In this document: positions 13,763 to 35,674 of the stretch, piece after piece
Position numbering within the stretch: position 1 is the stretch's first letter
Layout of the letters: every line of letters begins with the position of its first letter
NCBI GenBank assembly: GCA_020024735.1
Contig: JAHHTI010000001.1
Location: forward strand, 1 to 40,995
Length of the DNA: 40,995 nucleotides
Direction: 5' to 3'
From: Mycoplasmataceae bacterium
GTDB lineage: Bacteria > Bacillota_I > Bacilli_A > Mycoplasmatales > Mycoplasmoidaceae
Notes under the pieces: model-generated
What the model was told of the DNA's origin: nothing
Databases searched by the model: none
The model's input: the letters and a program-made list of their open reading frames with translations, nothing else
Made by a program: the position numbers and the translations under genes

Positions 13763-16700
13763 CTATAATAAGTGTTTTCCATGTTGACGATCATTGTGTT
13801 CATCATATGATCTCTTATCATGAATTAGTTTACCGATAACTAAAATAATGGCAAGTAATATTAGGATAAAGAAGATAATTCACATTGCAGTATAGCCACC
13901 AGAAGCATTTAAGTCAATTTGTGTTCCTTCTATAACTATATTTCCTGCAGTTCCAACAATACTACCAATAGTAATGATTCCATCACTATATGCAACAGCT
14001 GGTTCATCTCTTGAAAGTGCTCCTAAAATATCATCAATATAAGCATTTGGTAAATTGTTTCTATTAGCTTCTACTCAATCATGAATTTGACCATTGACAC
14101 CAATTGGGTTTCCAATAATTAGATCATGGACAATGATATTAGGGTCAACATCGGGATTTTTAGCAATGGCATCTTTAATTTGACTACCATTGATAATATC
14201 ATCAAATGAAATTTTTGGATTAGCTTTTAAATTAACTCAATATTCATGAGTTTCATTGTGGCCATAAAGTGCATATGGGAAAGATACAATATTACTATAA
14301 GTAACTACAATTCTAGCCTTATTGTTATTTGGGATAATATCTACATCCACTGAAATAGCTTGAGATGGAGAAGATGGAATTAGATTAGGATTGGTTACAA
14401 AAGTATTAATATTAGTATTGATATATTTTAATAATTCACTCTTAACAGATGGAATAGCATTTGCTCAATCACTAGTAAAGAATTTATTCACACTATTAGT
14501 TTTTCAAATAACTTCTTTTAAAACATCCAAATTAACATTATTAATTCATGAAGTATTCTTACCATTAGATAGAGAAGCGTCAAAACCTGATACAATTTGA
14601 TCATTTACGGGAATATCATCAACATGTGCATTACCCATAGCATCAACAGTTACATTAGGAAGAGCATTAATTAAAGCGTCTTTCATTGATTGTGGTAATT
14701 CGTGACTATTTGCATAATCCTTTAATTGTTGTTTAATAGCATTTTCCCCAGCAATCTCAGCAGCATTTTGAAGTGTTGTTGGATCTTTCTTATCAGCATC
14801 TGGTAACTTACTAATAACATTATTTACACTATCAACAAATTGTGGTTTATTTAAAGTGATATTAAGAGTAGGGTCTTTATCTAATGGTAAATAGTAAGTA
14901 GCAACTTCAGTTGTCGGTAAAGCAGAACCAGCTGGTCTATTTAAATAATCATAGGTTACTTCAAAAATAGCTTTCTTTGTAGTGTGGTCAATTGTCAAAG
15001 TAACATTAGAAGCAGCAGTTGATCATCCTGGTTTATCAATGAATGTCGTAATGTGAGAGTTAATATAATTTAATAAACCGTCTGATAATTCTTGATTAGT
15101 ATATATATTATTTCAATCACTATAGAAAATAGTTTTACCTGGTCAAATTTCAGTTCGATATGCTCTTAAATCCACATCTTTAATACTTGAAGCATCATTA
15201 CTATCAATAATAATAAAATCTCCACTAGCCACTGTACGATCTCCGGCAACAAATTCTCCTACAGTAACTGTTCCATCAGTATAAGTTACTTCAGGAATAA
15301 CAACACCTAAATCATTTTTCATATTATTTGGTAAAACATTCTTTTTTGCAAAATCTCGAATTTGTGCAACTACTGAATCTTTTGCAGCTTTATTAATTGC
15401 TTCATTTAATAAGACATCATTATGTTTGTCAGCTTCTGGTAATTTAGAAACAGCAGCAAAAATATCATCTTTTAATTTTTTATTGTTAACCATTTGTTGA
15501 ATAGTTAAAAGAGGACTAGGAACTAATCTTAATGAATATTTTTTCAACACAGATGTTTGTAAATTACCTGCATCATCCATAATTGCAAGACCATTATAAG
15601 TAACATCGATTGAAGCACTATTGTTAGGTCTATCAATACTAATAGCTACATTGGTAGCAGATGTAGAAGTTGATAATGGATTACTTACAAATTCAGCAAT
15701 GTGAGTATTAATATAATTAGCCAATGCTTCTTGTAACTGTGGATGAGAATAGAAATTTTCTCAGTCTGCTAAAAAGAAAGAATTATTTAATCAAATCTTT
15801 TCCTTAATTGGATTTAAATCAACATCTTTAATACGTGATATTAATCCATTAGTATTTAAAATGTTATCAAATACTTTTTGAGGAATAGTTTGTGAAAAAC
15901 CAGAATCTGAAATTGGTAATGCATTAATAGTTAAGCTACCATTATTGTAGTTTATGGTTGGAGTAGCTGTACTTAAAGCTTTATTCATTCATTTTGGAAG
16001 TGTTGCAGTAGCACCATATTTGTTAACTTGATCTTTAACTGATTTTGCCAGTGCATTAGAAATTACTCCATTAACAAAAGGAATATCAGTTATCTTATTG
16101 GCTGGAACTCCTTTAACTGCAGTTTCTACAGCTTTTTGTAATGTTGGCAAACTAACCATATCATCATATGTTAAGATTGGTGTTTCAACTAAAGTAACAG
16201 TATAGTGAGCAACACCAGTCACACCTGTAGTTGCTCCTGGAATCATAATTAAATCTCCATAAGTAACGTCTGCATTAGCCATTCCTTTATCTACATTAAT
16301 AGTCACTTCGTTAACAACTACATGGTGAGTATTAATCACAGGATTATTAATAAATTGAGTAATGTTATTGGTAATATATTGTTTTAAAGCATTTTGTAGT
16401 GGTTCTTTGTTAACTGTAAGACTTCAATCATCAACAAAAAAATGATTATTTTTTCAAATGTCATTCTTTCATGGATCTAAACTCTTAATTGGTTTAATAC
16501 TAGAAATTTCATTAGAATCAAAGATTTGAAAATTTAGTCCTTTGATAGTAGCACTAAATCTATTGTCAGTTGAACTTACTGGAATATCAGGAATATCAGC
16601 ATAACCACCACTATAAGAAACTAATGGATCAGCTGCTTTTAACGCTTCTTTTAGTCATTTAGGTAAAGCATGGGTATTAGCATAATCAACTATTTCTTTC

Positions 16701-19700
16701 TTTGCTTCTTGTTTTAAAGCAGCACTCACTTTAGAATCAACTAATGGAATATTACTTTGATCAGATTCAGGAATTTTAGCAATTTCATCAATAGCAACCT
16801 TTTTCAATACTGGCTTATTTAAAATGTCTCCTAAAGTAGGTAATACACTAGCAGTTGATCTTAAAGAGATAGTATATTCTCTAGTTACTTCGTTAGCAAC
16901 TTTATCACCATTTAAAATAGCAATACCTTGATATACTACATCAAAAATAGCTTTATTATCAACATCATTTATTCTTATTGTTACACTTTTAACTCTTGTA
17001 GAAAGTTTGTTGATTAAAAAGGTATCTAAGTTATTATTCATATAAGCTTGCAAAGTATCTGATAAACTTTTGTGTTGAGTTTCATCTAGTCAATCATCTG
17101 TAAAGAAATCATTACCAGTTCAAATATTATTTTTATATGCATTCAGTGAAGTATCTCTAATCTTAGTTACATATTTATTAGCAGGAGCAGCATCAGGTGG
17201 AGAAAATAAATCAAAACTATCCGCTGCAACAGTTTGTGGTCCTGCAGGGAAACTACCAACATTTAAAATACCATCAGCAAAATCCACAGAAGGATTAGCA
17301 TTATTAAGTCCATTTATCATTGATTGAGGAAGAGGAACTTTATTAGGATAATCCTTAAGTTGTTGTAAAACAGAATTTTTTAATCCAGCATTAATAGCAG
17401 CATTAACTTTATTAATATCATTTTTATCTTGTGGACTTATTCCATTATATGCATTGGCTAAAGCTTCAAGTAACTTACCTTTATCTAACATGTCACGTAG
17501 AGTTAATGTTGGCGACTTTTTTAAATTAAGAGTGTAAGTGTGAGAGTCTTCTTGGCCAACAACAGACCCAGGCGTTGTTACTAGTCCTTGGTAAGTGACA
17601 GTAATGCCAATAGGACTATCTTCACCATTGAATTGAAAACTAGCTTCTTTCATTGATGTGATAACACCATTTAAGTTAGGGTTTATTACAAATCTTGAAA
17701 TATTTTTATCAATATATGTCTTTAATTGACTAGATAAGGTATTTTCAGAATAAAAATGACTTTTTCAATCTTCGTAAAATAAACTATTATCTGGTCAAAT
17801 AGTTGTTCTTCATTGATTTAATGAAGTAATAGACTTATTAATACTAGAAATTTTATTTGAAAGAGCCACTAACCCTTCAACTACAATTTCACCAGAATTT
17901 ACAGGACCTAGAACCCCATCTGTTCAACCCTTGTCATGCATAAGAGTCACTTGAATAGTTTTTCTACCAAGAGTTCCTTCACCTGGTTTATCAACAAATT
18001 GAATCTCTAAATCATCAGGTGATACGCTAGATATAGGATGACCATAAGCTAAATCTACAATAGCATTATTTTCTGGTTTCAAAATAAAGTCTTTTAGCGC
18101 CTTTTGTCCTGCAGGTGAATCTAAATCAGTAGGCAACATTTTTGATAACACCGGATCTCGATTAACCACTAAATTTTTATTAAAAGAAGTATTAATATTA
18201 GTATTTTTAAAACCATTTAAAATAAAATCTGTGTTGAATTCTTTATCATCTCTTAACACTAAACTAGTATCGATATATTTATTAATAGTGATATGAACAG
18301 TTAATTGCCCATTTTTATTACTAATACTATTAGGGTAAGGGTCGTCAACAATTACATTTACTAGTTCCACCCCAGATGGAAGTCCAGTTGCAAACTTATC
18401 TAAATGATTATGCACATATTCTTGAATTTGTTCCTTAGTTGCTTGACCAGCATATAAATTAGACAAAGGAGCAGTTACAGTAACTACTTGAGGATTAACT
18501 CAAGCACTTGCCTTTTTTAGCCCTTGAAAATAGAATATTTTATTAAAATTCATATCATAGGCTTGTGACCCTTTAGCATTAATATAGTGATCTAAGGTAA
18601 CTTTACACTTAACAGTATCACCAGCAGTTTCATCCAATTTTTCAACATGAAAATTTTTTAATTTTACATCAGCCTTATTATAAGTCCCACCTTTTAAAAA
18701 TTGATCTTGATGATCAAAAACATATTTTTCAAATTCTGATGCTGGGGCTTCTAATGCTAGATTACCTACTACATCTACCCTATCAGTATCAACCCATTCA
18801 GTTGGTCTTGCTACATTAGGTGTAAAACCAGTAATAGTAAAAGGATATCAAGCTATTGTTGGTGTTTTAGCATAAGCAGTAGCTGAGGTAGGCGTTAATG
18901 CAAGAGCAAAAACAACAAATACACTGCTATTATCAGGATTAACTTCAAAGTGAGTAATAACAGCTCTTTCAACATCTGTAAAAGTAACAACTGATGGTGC
19001 ATCAGGTAAACCAGCTCATTTAGCCAAACTAGCAGCATAACCTCCAGTCAATTTATTGTGATACAACAAGTTCCCTGCTTTTACAATATTCTTAAATGCT
19101 TTTAAAACTGATTGATAATGAGGCGCCAATTCTATGGGATTTAACACTTTCCAATTATCAAGGATATATTTAGAATCTTTAAATGGTTGTCATTCACTAG
19201 GTTTAGGTGCGTCAAAGGGAGCTGTTGGGTCGTCAAGAACATCTTTGAAAGAAATAACATTGCTTTTCATATCCGATCAAATAGTTCCACCAGAAGCAGG
19301 GAAATTATAAGTAGAAAAACTAATTTTCGTTTTATCAGGTTCATAATAATCAATATTAAGAGGTGGATTTGCTGGAAGGCTGCTACCTGGTTTATTTAAT
19401 GCAGGATTATTTAAATACAAATGGTCTACAAGAAAAACATTTGGTCCAAATGCAGAAGCATCAAAACCACCAAAATTAGGAGCATCACGATTAAAATGTT
19501 CAAATGGATTAGGAAGATCAGCCGGAGATGGTGGTTTAGCATAACCATTTATATGATCTGGAGTAGCAGGAAAGGTGTCTAAATTTCTACCATTATGCAG
19601 AGGACCATTAGTTGGAGTATTAATCAATACATTACGTCATCATGAACTATAAGGCGGTTCACCATTAATTCTAGAATTATGAGAATTATCAATAGAAGAG

Positions 19701-19873
19701 ATATCATTAGTTAGCACAGAGCTATTAATATCATTTTGTTGATTAACAAGTTCTACTCCAGCATTTGCTATATTGTTATGTTGACCAATAACAATTGCAG
19801 AAGTTGTTAATGCAATCATGATACTAATAGGTGCTAAACTAATACACAATCTTCTTTTATTTTTTTTCGTCAT
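13763..19873 (-). CDS. Giant modular surface protein (2036 aa) with N-terminal signal-anchor, Pro-rich segment, ~450-aa unique domain, six to seven ~215-aa tandem modules and a C-terminal TM anchor
   Basis: Nine track ORFs (19640-19879 down to 14546-14998) are all in one frame. Every gap was walked codon by codon: 29 in-frame TGA and no TAA/TAG until TAG at 13763-13765. ATG at 19873 is preceded by GGAG. N-terminus MTKKNKRRLCISLAPISIMIALTTSAIVIG; C-terminus WIIFFILILLAIILVIGKLIHDKRSYDEHNDRQHGKHLL. Confidence 0.85.
13883..17797 (-). repeat. Six protein-level tandem modules (module starts at W codons 17795, 17120, 16454, 15791, 15143 and 14504; period 639-675 nt)
   Basis: Each module opens with I-W-x(4-7)-F-[FY]-x-x-D-W. 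The six openings are IWPDNSLFYEDW, IWTGNDFFTDDW, IWKNNHFFVDDW, IWLNNSFFLADW, IWPGKTIFYSDW and IWKTNSVNKFFTSDW. This is followed by L..Y[IM]N..[IL]..F, a VTY.GL beta-like stretch, a helical IP..DK....N.AI...K...Q..DYA....LP segment and an IKD.DL..Y tail. The repeats are diverged at the DNA level. A seventh, degenerate module lies at about 17798-18480. Confidence 0.75.
19860..19867 (-). repeat. Poly(A)8 homopolymer in codons 3-5 of the giant surface-protein gene
   Basis: The plus strand shows T8 at 19860-19867. The coding strand reads ATG ACG AAA AAA AAT AAA AGA. Confidence 0.95.
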
Positions 19874-32706: not shown

Positions 32707-34437
32707 ATGCGTGTTAAGAAAGATATAAATTATTTATTAGCAATACTTACTGAAAGTGTTTTAAACAAGGAATATAGTGGTTATACGCCTGTTAACCACG
32801 GAGTGGATGAAGAAAGTTTTTTCATTGAATTTAAGGTTGATGAAAAAATTTCAAGTAATGATTTTAACAAAATTGAAAAATTAATTCACAAAGTAATTGG
32901 GGGAGCACACGAAGTTCAATGTAAACCAATTAAACATAGTGAAGCTATTGAAAAATTCAAAGACAATGAATTTTTAACTTATTTAATTAAAGAAGCAAAT
33001 CAAAGTGAATATTACTTAACAAGTGTTAATCATTATGAAACTATATTACTTGAACCTATTTCATTTAATAAAACTAATATCATCAAGGCATTGAAGTTAT
33101 TATCAATCGGTGGTGCTTATTGATTAGGTGATGCAGACCAACCAACACTAATTAGATTAATAGGAGTTGGTTTTGATAATAAAAATGACTTTGATAACTA
33201 TATGTTAGAATACCAAGAACGTCTTGACCGTGACCACCGAAAAATTGGAAAAGAATTAGATTTATTTACATTTGATTTATTAGCTGGTCAAGGTTTGCCA
33301 ATTTGATTAAATAAAGGTACTATTATTCGAAAACAAATTCGTAACTTTTTATCTGAATTAGAATTCAAATACAACTTTGAAGATGTTTATACTCCGATTT
33401 TAGGAAATATAGACCTATATAAAAAATCTGGCCATTGAGAACATTATCGTGAAAATATGTTTTCACCAATTAAAGTTGATAATGAAGAATTAGTCTTAAG
33501 ACCAATGACTTGTCCACACCATATTTTAGTGTATAAAAGAAAACCTTATTCATATAAACAATTACCAATTAGATTATGTGAAGAATCAATGTTGCATAGA
33601 TACGAATCTTCAGGTGGTTTAACAGGTTTAGAAAGAGTAAGAGAAATGATTCTTGAAGATACTCATATTTTTTGTACACCAGAACAAATTGAACAAGAAG
33701 TATTGACATGTTACAACATTATTAAAGATGCACACAAAGGTTTTGGAACTGAAATTTTCCAAGTAGATTTATCATTACATGATCCTGATAATAAAGAAAA
33801 ATTCCATAAAGACCCTAAAATGTGAGAAGTAGCAGAAAACTCTTTAAGACAAATGTTAAAGAAACATAATATTCCTTTTGTTGAAAAAGTTGGTGAAGCT
33901 GCTTTCTATGGACCTAAAATTGACTTCCAAGTAAAAACATCTTTAAATAGAATCATCACAATGTCTACTATTCAATTAGACTTTTTGTTACCAATGAAAT
34001 TCGAACTAGAATACAAGGATAAAGAAGGTGAATTTAATCGTCCAATTATGATTCACTTAGGTATTATTGGAACATATGAAAGATTAGTTTCCATCATCCT
34101 AGAACAAACCAAAGGTATTCTTCCTTTATGATTATCTCCAGATCAAGTAGTTATTATTCCAGTTAATAATGAATTACATTTAGATTATGCAAAAGAAATT
34201 CATCAAGTATTAAAAAATAAAATGATTAGAGCACAATTAGATGATCGTGATGAAAGAATGAATAAAAAAATTAGAGAATCACAAATGTCTAAAATACCTT
34301 ATCAAATTATTATTGGAGATAAAGAGTTGAATGATAAAACCATATCAGTTAGAGAATATGGTAGTGAAGAAACTAATACCTATAAGGTTGATGAGTTCTT
34401 AAATATTTTATTAGAAAAAATAGCCAAAAAACAATAA
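32707..34437 (+). CDS. thrS: Threonyl-tRNA synthetase lacking the TGS domain, with a degenerate editing site (576 aa)
   Basis: Four track ORFs are in one frame, joined by TGA (33121, 33304, 33436, 33823, 34129). It has the class II core [34 protein letters not shown] and the anticodon-binding end [12 protein letters not shown]. Confidence 0.93.
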
Positions 34438-34449
34438 TAGAACATTTTC

Positions 34450-35220
34450 TTAGTATTGTATATGAAATTTGTTAGTAAAATAATCCTTAATTTTATTTTT
34501 GATTTTATCATAAGCACTTCCGGTTTCGGTATCTTCTTCTCTAAATCTAAACAAATCATCGAGAGTTAAATGAAAACTAGGTATATCATATTGTTTAGTT
34601 AAACCATTAAATGAGCATGTAAGCATATCTACATGTATATCATTAAGTTCACATCTTTCTATCCTGTCTCCAGTGTACATAATAAAACGATCATGAATGT
34701 TATCTTCAATTATTGGATGACAAGTAACATTAGCACGACCATTTATAAAACTATTTTTACAATATTTAGAAATGAGATCAAGAACTAAGGATTGTTGACA
34801 TAAAAATCTATCTTTTAATATATGAGCAGTTATAAAATGAATATTAATATTCTTATTTAAGCATCTATTTATTCAATTTGATACTAGGTCATCTTCATAT
34901 TGATTAATTTCTATAAAACCTATTCAAGGATTTTTAGACTTATTTGGCTTGTTATAAACATTTTTGTGGCTGTAATCATATTCATATAAATATTTTCCGT
35001 TGCCATTTTCATATTTATTAACATTATTATGTCCATTATTATTAATAATATTATATCCATTAGGCCTATTAGAGTAAGCCTTACTAGGATTAAGAAAATA
35101 CTTATCAATTATATAAATATGACTACTTCCATAGTCTATAGCATTTTGATACAACTTATTAAGAAACGTATCTAATTCATTTTGATCTACAACTACAACA
35201 TTACCATTATGTATCTCCAT
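34450..35220 (-). CDS. Orphan hypothetical protein (256 aa) with an Asn-rich low-complexity insert
   Basis: Track ORFs 34450-34680 and 34924-35220 are in one frame. The gap 34681-34923 was walked (TGA at 34924 and 34873 only). ATG at 35220 is preceded by AGAGG, and TAA is at 34450-34452. I am not confident of any family assignment. Confidence 0.7.
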
Positions 35221-35238
35221 TTCTACCTCTTATGATTA

Positions 35239-35276
35239 TTGACATTAAAAGTATATATATATATATATATTGTCAA
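35239..35276 (-). promoter_or_regulatory. Candidate promoter of the orphan gene: -35 TTGACA (35276-35271), spacer made of the TA repeat, -10-like TACTTT (35253-35248); a mirror-image TTGACA sits on the plus strand at 35239-35244
   Basis: Minus strand reads aaccTTGACA(AT)9ACTTTTAATGTCAATAATCATAAGAGGTAGAAATG. A consensus -35 lies exactly 17 nt from a TA...T hexamer. It is located between the trxA terminator and the orphan ATG. Confidence 0.5.
35252..35270. repeat. (TA)9T dinucleotide microsatellite
   Basis: TATATATATATATATATAT read directly at 35252-35270. It is the longest simple-sequence repeat I saw in the window. Confidence 0.95.
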
Positions 35277-35312
35277 GGTTATTTGTATATATTGTTACTA
35301 GTAAAAAACAAA

Positions 35313-35334
35313 AGCAAGAGAGAACTCTCTTGCT
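35313..35334 (-). terminator. Intrinsic terminator of trxA
   Basis: AGCAAGAGAG-AA-CTCTCTTGCT, with 10-nt perfectly complementary arms, followed on the minus strand by TTTGTTTTTT. It lies 32 nt downstream of the trxA stop. Confidence 0.8.
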
Positions 35335-35365
35335 ATATGTTATTGATATATGTTGTTCCAAACAA

Positions 35366-35674
35366 TTATTTTCTATAATTTTCGATATTAGATAATAATT
35401 GGTTTTCAGGAATAAATCCATTACTACGACCAACTTCTTGACCGTTTTTAAAGTAAATTATAGTAGGAATAGATTGTACATTATGTTTTTCTGCTAAATC
35501 AGAAAAATCATCAATATTTAACTTGTAAAGATTATATTCAGGATGTGCTTCAGAGATTTTTTCAATAACTGGGCCTAACATTCTACATGGTCCACATCAT
35601 TCTGCAAAGAAATCAATCACAGCATAATCAGCTTGCATTAATTCATCATATTTTGATTTATTTTCAATTTTCAT
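35366..35674 (-). CDS. trxA: Thioredoxin (102 aa)
   Basis: Track ORF 35366-35581 extends upstream through TGA at 35597-35599 to ATG at 35674, with the RBS AAGGAG. The active site is FFAEWCGPC, with the invariant W encoded by TGA. Confidence 0.93.

Follow-up and report, generated by a model that had tools for sequence, protein, structure and literature searches.

A (TA)n tract of variable length in the core promoter region of an orphan gene from an uncultured Mycoplasmataceae lineage: a candidate simple-sequence contingency promoter

A pure (TA)9 microsatellite separates a perfect TTGACA hexamer from candidate -10 boxes upstream of a fast-evolving, lineage-specific orphan gene in the genome segment studied here, and in a near-identical genome the same tract carries eight units. 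Since the tract lies in the candidate promoter and its length differs between near-identical genomes, it probably adjusts expression of the orphan gene by slippage. We propose, with moderate confidence and from sequence comparisons, that the locus is a simple-sequence contingency promoter, in which slippage of (TA)n would shift the -35/-10 register and change orphan-gene expression.

The window, by which we mean the whole stretch of 40,995 nt that was analysed, has a G+C content of 28% and reads TGA as Trp. Direct evidence for genetic code 4 is provided by trxA, where the Trp codon of the thioredoxin WCGPC motif (35590-35604) is TGA. ORF calling under code 11 splits trxA, thrS, topA and the orphan gene at TGA, as it does most genes of the contig, and all gene coordinates given here are those of code 4. 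Among 185,579 species-representative genomes, the closest is that of an 'uncultured Mycoplasmataceae bacterium', with a ThrRS identity of 71%, and the next best matches reach ~40-46%, indicating that the source is a divergent, uncultured mycoplasma-like lineage. We note that the minus strand also carries, at 13763-19873, an ORF of 2,036 aa whose N-terminus resembles a signal peptide or membrane anchor (MTKKNKRRLCISLAPISIMIALTTSAIVIG...) and which may encode a large surface protein.

The elements of the locus are given below; n is the number of TA units, spacers are counted from the TTGACA of the same strand, and the five copies are those of the window and of the four other assemblies described further on.

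35366..35674, minus strand: trxA (thioredoxin; Pfam PF00085), with the Trp of WCGPC encoded by TGA
35303..35334, minus strand: intrinsic terminator of trxA (hairpin 35313-35334, T-tail 35303-35312)
35271..35276, minus strand: perfect TTGACA, candidate -35 of the sense (orphan-gene) promoter, kept in five of five copies
35266..35271, plus strand: TATATT, best plus-strand -10 candidate (5/6; spacer 2n+3), overlapping the sense -35 by one base
35252..35269, no strand assigned: (TA)9 microsatellite, common spacer of promoter-like elements on both strands
35250..35255, minus strand: TATACT, best sense -10 candidate (5/6 relative to TATAAT; spacer 2n-3)
35248..35253, minus strand: TACTTT, the -10 of the original prediction (3/6 relative to TATAAT; spacer 2n-1)
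35239..35244, plus strand: mirror TTGACA in the 5' leader region of the orphan gene, candidate -35 facing away from the gene
35225..35231, minus strand: Shine-Dalgarno-like AAGAGGT, 4 nt 5' of the ATG (AAGAGG kept in the L086 copy)
34450..35220, minus strand: orphan gene, 256 aa under code 4, with three TGA codons read as Trp
32707..34437, plus strand: thrS, convergent with the orphan gene

Read on the minus strand, the order of elements is TTGACA-A(TA)9-CTTTTAATGTCAA-TAATCATAAGAGGTAGAA-ATG or, in longer form, CCTTGACA-A(TA)9-CTTTTAATGTCAATAATCATAAGAGGTAGAA-ATG; positions 35271-35276 read TGTCAA on the plus strand. The bracketing of (TA)9 by inverted TTGACA hexamers is exactly as the original prediction gave it. 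The tract consists of 100% matches, is located 32 nt 5' of the ATG of the orphan gene, and is the sole (TA) run of at least five units in the 40,995 nt; the expectation for (TA)7, calculated from dinucleotide-preserving shuffles, is 0.01 per window. It is thus a real and non-random feature, far beyond chance. With slippage expected of pure tracts of about 6-7 or more dinucleotide units, (TA)9 has the length and purity of an SSR promoter-spacer contingency locus. TTGACA itself is found at 24 sites on both strands, close to the estimate from base composition and with no over-representation, and an inverted pair appeared somewhere in the window in 21 of 100 shuffles, so that the pair alone is not rare. 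What is unlikely by chance is its placement around the sole microsatellite. We also observed a 22-nt direct repeat, 82% identical, between 34785-34806 and 35229-35250 (CTAAGGATTGTTGACATAAAAA and CTTATGATTATTGACATTAAAA), which places one more TTGACA on the plus strand, within the coding sequence of the orphan gene, and is probably a chance match.

Exact-protein look-ups yielded four other copies of the locus, L001/L002, L003, L004 and L086. L001/L002 (Logan contig SRR14298101_27189) carries (TA)8 and, over 4,617 nt, shares 99.9% identity with the window; the two differ by 5 SNPs plus the loss of one TA unit, and by nothing else. The comparison of TA copy number that had been suggested originally was thus possible across assemblies, and gave nine versus eight, a whole-unit change in near-identical genomes; this length variation is that of two pure-tract assemblies only, where assembler choice or PCR stutter is possible. 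In L003 (SRR14298103) and L004 (SRR14298102) the tract is interrupted: it reads A(TA)4GC(TA)2 and continues with C and five T. Outside the tract, the intergenic region of both is identical to that of the window. In the ~1.9 kb upstream, L003 differs from the window by 2 SNPs, and all remaining differences there fall in the tract. L086 (NCBI GCA_003704445.1) is ~88% identical to the window and has the same interrupted tract, A(TA)4GC(TA)2. The change in length and the clustering of differences between near-identical genomes mark the tract as a mutational hotspot in the candidate core promoter, one that behaves like a slippage hotspot. Because the interrupted form is common to the diverged L086 and to the strains that carry the other allele of the gene, it is probably ancestral, and the pure (TA)8-9 would be derived in the window lineage. 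The TA length polymorphism and the apparent derivation from an interrupted precursor are what we consider to be new here. No further copies of the locus were found in JGI metagenomes (exact 31-mer scan and protein-profile scan), in the IMG/VR scan, or in exact look-ups with code-11 fragments of the orphan protein and thrS.

The same five copies were used to consider whether the inverted hexamers form a palindromic operator of a dimeric regulator. The distance between the two TTGACA is 26, 24, 23, 23 and 22 nt, and half-site spacings that range over 22-26 nt exclude an operator of fixed spacing. Separately, the last ~150 nt of the 1,048-nt L086 contig (RCNI01047211.1; L086:900-1048) diverge from the window and have a G+C content of 41%. 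They encode a coiled-coil-like peptide with a resemblance to ClpB that received no confirmation from Pfam, and represent either a chimeric contig or a different C-terminus.

The interval between the terminator and the ATG measures 112 nt and is the only stretch where the orphan gene's promoter can lie. Within this interval, TATACT is the sole good sense-strand -10; it ends 29-31 nt 5' of the ATG and is kept in five of five copies. Its spacer to TTGACA is 15 nt in the window, 13 nt in L001 and 11 nt in the three interrupted alleles, and would be 17 nt at n=10, where the two hexamers would form an 11/12 consensus promoter. The TACTTT selected by the original prediction does lie exactly 17 nt from the minus-strand TTGACA, but matches TATAAT at only three of six positions; its spacer is 17 nt in the window, 15 nt in L001 and 13 nt in the interrupted alleles, and in L086 the position reads TACTCT. 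A scan for consensus promoters, with spacers of 16-18 nt and at least 4/6 in each hexamer, returned no sense-strand promoter at the locus in any copy.

In the outward direction, the spacer between the mirror TTGACA and TATATT is 21 nt in the window, 19 nt in L001, 18 nt in L003/L004 and 17 nt in L086, and the same scan returned TTGACA-17-TATATT in L086 and TTGACA-18-TATATT in L003, both 11/12. The plus-strand TATATA that had been proposed at 17 nt from TTGACA is present, but is a trivial product of the repeat and has no T at position 6. An arrangement of divergent genes like that of the Haemophilus influenzae fimbrial locus, to which the element had been likened, was not recovered: downstream of the tract, the plus strand holds only the terminator hairpin and trxA antisense, with no ORF preceded by a ribosome-binding site and no Rfam family. 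A conserved block 5' of the -35, as could be expected of an UP element or sRNA, was also considered and rejected. The 33-nt run of identity between the window and L086 at this position is unexceptional, as the two share five identical runs longer than 33 nt and the longest is expected to reach ~42 nt.

The orphan gene is the only gene of the window with a perfect TTGACA upstream; the other genes have TATAAT-like -10 boxes and weak -35 regions, with 2-4/6 matches. With the only perfect -35 of the window in front of it and weak ones elsewhere, the orphan promoter looks unusually dependent on its -35. Sites matching TTGACA, 16-18 nt and TATAAT at 11/12 positions or better, counted on both strands, number zero in the window versus a mean of 4.2 (range 2-8) in 30 simulated first-order Markov sequences of the same composition. 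Strong consensus promoters seem to be depleted here, and the real promoters appear to pair weak -35 regions with -10 boxes that are perfect or nearly so.

The terminator of trxA combines a 9-bp stem, in which 4 pairs are GC, with a loop of 4 nt and the tail TTTGTTTTTT, and is positioned 36 nt upstream of the sense -35. It had been argued that, with this terminator in place, the orphan gene depends on the TA promoter; the terminator is indeed real, but the dependence is deduced from it, and read-through is possible. On the plus strand, the hairpin is followed by ATATGTTATT, a poor terminator tail. The stop codons of thrS and of the orphan gene (34437-34450) are 12 nt apart, and no terminator-like hairpin is found on the plus strand after thrS before position 35313. 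Transcription of thrS may thus cross the orphan gene in antisense and enter the TA tract.

The product of the gene is a true orphan, whose only relatives among 5.8 billion and 1.84 billion proteins are its own alleles. Searches of Pfam, NCBIfam, PADLOC and PHROGs, with the single sequence and with all three alleles, gave no meaningful match, nor did a profile search of the PDB, and a word-indexed search among 5.8 billion proteins found nothing but the query. A full HMMER scan of 1.84 billion representatives returned two entries only, P0004 and P0005. P0004 is the L086 allele, cut short where code-11 gene calling took a TGA codon as a stop (under code 11, the window ORF itself is reduced to a fragment of 98 aa). 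P0005, a repetitive protein of 2,270 aa, was rejected as a homologue: its score is the sum of 15 weak repeat matches and is spurious. A suspected resemblance of the 'HDRF' motif to PLD or MIT_C-like proteins received no support from the searches. Single-sequence AlphaFold modelling gave a mean pLDDT of 39.7.

The protein starts with MEIHNGNVVVVDQNELD and its first Cys is residue 120. Over 19 residues, Kyte-Doolittle hydropathy peaks at 0.77, versus about 1.6 for a transmembrane segment; we found no signal peptide, transmembrane segment, lipobox or repeats, and the product is predicted to be soluble. Residues ~45-97 form a low-complexity stretch rich in N, Y and K. The Cys and His residues that are invariant in the three alleles are C120, C154, C167-H168, H176-D-R-F, C190, H196 and C202, and the invariant motifs include NWI.RCL, NINIHF, TCH, HDRFI.YT and DIH.DMLTCS.NGL. 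In both allele comparisons dN/dS is ~0.9-1.0, yet the ORF is intact in all three alleles despite the AT-richness of the gene. Intact ORFs and invariant Cys/His motifs at a dN/dS of ~1 favour selection over decay, and suggest that the gene is under diversifying or balancing selection and is not a decaying pseudogene.

A block of ~930 nt comprising terminator, promoter and orphan gene (34438-35365) is absent from two related genomes (L005:806-851 and L006:6723-6790). In L005, whose trxA is ~93% identical, and in L006, a Mycoplasmataceae bin, thrS and trxA converge directly on one bidirectional hairpin. The block thus represents an insertion specific to this lineage, which took the place of the ancestral terminator. 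In L003, a mosaic boundary is located inside the orphan gene (window 34555-35095 versus L003:1900-2450): identity is ~100% across topA, trxA and the intergenic region and into the gene as far as ~125 nt (about codon 43), and drops to 54-80% per 100 nt past the boundary. The allele carried by L003 has 53% amino-acid identity to that of the window, with a dS of ~0.52 versus essentially zero in the flanks. This mosaic suggests an ancient allelic dimorphism or the replacement of an allele by recombination.

In the mechanism that we propose, replication slippage would add or remove TA units; mismatch repair is generally missing from mycoplasmas, and this would make slippage more frequent. Each unit would shift the distance between the -35 and the -10 by 2 bp, raising or lowering transcription of the orphan gene. 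If TATACT is the -10, as seems likeliest, (TA)8 and (TA)9 would give spacers of 13 and 15 nt, both low or off, and (TA)10 would place TTGACA 17 nt from TATACT in a near-consensus 11/12 on state. If the -10 were TACTTT instead, (TA)9 would be the on state. We consider an on register at n=10 with TATACT to be more likely than one at n=9 with TACTTT. Against a contingency promoter stands the absence of canonical 16-18 nt spacing to a good -10 in all five copies (0/5). In addition, the other promoters of the window appear to be -10-driven with weak -35 regions, so that the -35, and hence the length of the spacer, may matter little. The product, moreover, is not a surface protein, the usual cargo of mycoplasma switches.

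A possibility that is rather unlikely in our estimate is that the tract is a neutral hypermutable microsatellite, grown from a TATA-rich promoter segment after loss of the GC interruption, whose length and purity make it slip. The orphan gene would then be transcribed from a -10-driven TATACT promoter, and TA copy number would have little or no regulatory or adaptive effect. Such a promoter would resemble the others of the window, with their good -10 boxes and -35 matches of only 2-4/6. The three interrupted alleles, including L086 with its ~12% divergence, keep TTGACA 11 nt from TATACT, a spacing that cannot serve a -35/-10 pair, and yet the gene is intact in them; the dN/dS of ~0.9-1.0 is also as neutrality would have it. 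What neutrality explains less well is the retention of a perfect TTGACA at the edge of the tract in all copies. In the interrupted alleles, the position 17 nt from TATACT offers only ATAACC, a 3/6 match to a -35, and expansion brings the perfect hexamer stepwise toward the optimal register. It is also hard to envisage that insertions of 2-8 bp into a core promoter leave transcription unaffected. That the difference between nine and eight units is technical, arising from stutter in library PCR or from assembler choice around a tract whose length is really fixed, appears highly improbable. TA repeats are prone to stutter, and there are only two pure-tract assemblies, but the (TA)9 and (TA)8 assemblies also differ by 5 SNPs and thus represent different populations, and the interrupted form is exactly the same in the contigs of two separate runs. 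Logan assemblies use 31-mers, and the tract is shorter than these, which makes k-mer collapse unlikely.

A reciprocal, bidirectional switch, in which overlapping divergent promoters with a common TA spacer would use the inverted TTGACA hexamers as their -35 boxes, is a distinctly unlikely alternative to the one-sided contingency promoter. The outward TTGACA-N(2n+3)-TATATT would be best at ~7 units and the orphan TTGACA-N(2n-3)-TATACT at 10, and tract length would shift RNA polymerase between them, the outward RNA being either a short non-coding transcript that ends at the hairpin or an antisense transcript of trxA. The locus has no strong consensus promoters other than the 11/12 outward sites in L086 and L003, the outward spacers of the pure tracts are 21 nt (window) and 19 nt (L001), and the hairpin lies ~35 nt downstream of the expected outward TSS; the real window, besides, is without any site of at least 11/12 at 16-18 nt. 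Random sequence of matched composition nevertheless yields ~4 such sites per 41 kb, and spurious antisense promoters are common in AT-rich genomes. The outward strand has no gene or known RNA family, the tail that follows the hairpin is a poor one, and the 33-nt block identical between the window and L086 is no longer than expected. We finally consider it very unlikely that a reciprocal switch has been caught at its birth upstream of a conflict gene. In such a scenario, an ancestral, locked A(TA)4GC(TA)2 with an outward promoter close to consensus and a gene promoter independent of the -35 would have lost its GC interruption, giving a slipping (TA)n tract that would move RNA polymerase between the outward non-coding or antisense promoter (~7 units) and the orphan promoter (10 units). 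The orphan would be a cytoplasmic, Cys/His-rich protein with two ancient, highly diverged alleles in otherwise identical genomes, an allele pattern that would be expected of a conflict gene (defence, toxin or host interaction) and not of a surface antigen.

If the tract modulates expression of the orphan gene, as the contingency reading holds, promoter-spacer TA switching would reach beyond the Mycoplasma mycoides cluster to a distant uncultured mollicute, and would come to include a cytoplasmic orphan protein in addition to surface lipoproteins. The set of alleles, with the interrupted form in L086 and in the allele-B strains and (TA)8/(TA)9 in near-identical genomes, offers an unusually clear view of how an ordinary promoter can give rise to a contingency locus. 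In practice, it singles out the orphan gene, with its allelic dimorphism, its dN/dS near 1, its intact ORF and its lineage-specific insertion, as a gene under fluctuating selection that deserves study. Were the tract no more than a neutral microsatellite, the finding would be routine.

Among the closest known counterparts is the Vmm/Vmc system of the M. mycoides cluster, where (TA)n occupies the -35/-10 spacer of a single-gene mollicute promoter, as it would here by motif. The original prediction knew of no such design in a mycoplasma gene, but TA indels in the promoter spacer of Vmm had already been published: ON/OFF expression of Vmm in M. mycoides SC is attributed to dinucleotide indels within the spacer of the promoter (Persson et al. 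2002, as related in PMC10502178 and PMC2628566), and poly-TA tracts of 10-16 units are described as preceding lipoprotein genes across genomes of the M. mycoides cluster (PMC3053259). By comparison with the tracts so described, the one studied here has fewer units (8-9) and visibly stems from a precursor with an interruption. For Vmm, ON/OFF switching is reported in these accounts, whereas at the present locus it is a prediction. The host here belongs to a distant, uncultured Mycoplasmataceae-like lineage, and the orphan product has no signal peptide, lipobox or repeats and no homologue outside its own lineage. The orphan protein showed no homology to Vmm or Vmc proteins, its own alleles being the only significant homologues in the protein searches. 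As the orphan is not a lipoprotein and is not homologous to Vmm, the locus lacks what is specific to Vmm. In Mycoplasma hyorhinis, a poly(A) tract in the vlp promoter is stated to switch transcription (Citti and Wise 1995, as related in PMC10502178). The likeness would be that of a slippage tract inside the promoter of a single downstream gene; by that account, the present locus differs in being a single locus and not a gene family, in not driving a lipoprotein gene, and in its dinucleotide unit, which imposes changes in 2-bp steps. Dinucleotide repeats of variable length have also been found inside a metagenomic population of Ca. M. girerdii (PMC5476646).

In the hif locus of H. influenzae, (TA)9-11 lies between divergent genes, and strain R2866 carries an interrupted, non-variable (TA)4ATTA (PMC2651432). 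As in hifA/hifB, the TA tract here is the spacer of overlapping divergent promoter-like elements, and the (TA)4ATTA allele parallels A(TA)4GC(TA)2. The present locus differs from hif in having no gene on the divergent side, and thus lacks the feature specific to that system. Its cargo is not a fimbrial or other surface operon, and its two orientations cannot both be optimal at one repeat number (2n-3 versus 2n+3). Taken as a whole, the locus is a plausible further case of the known kind of contingency promoter.
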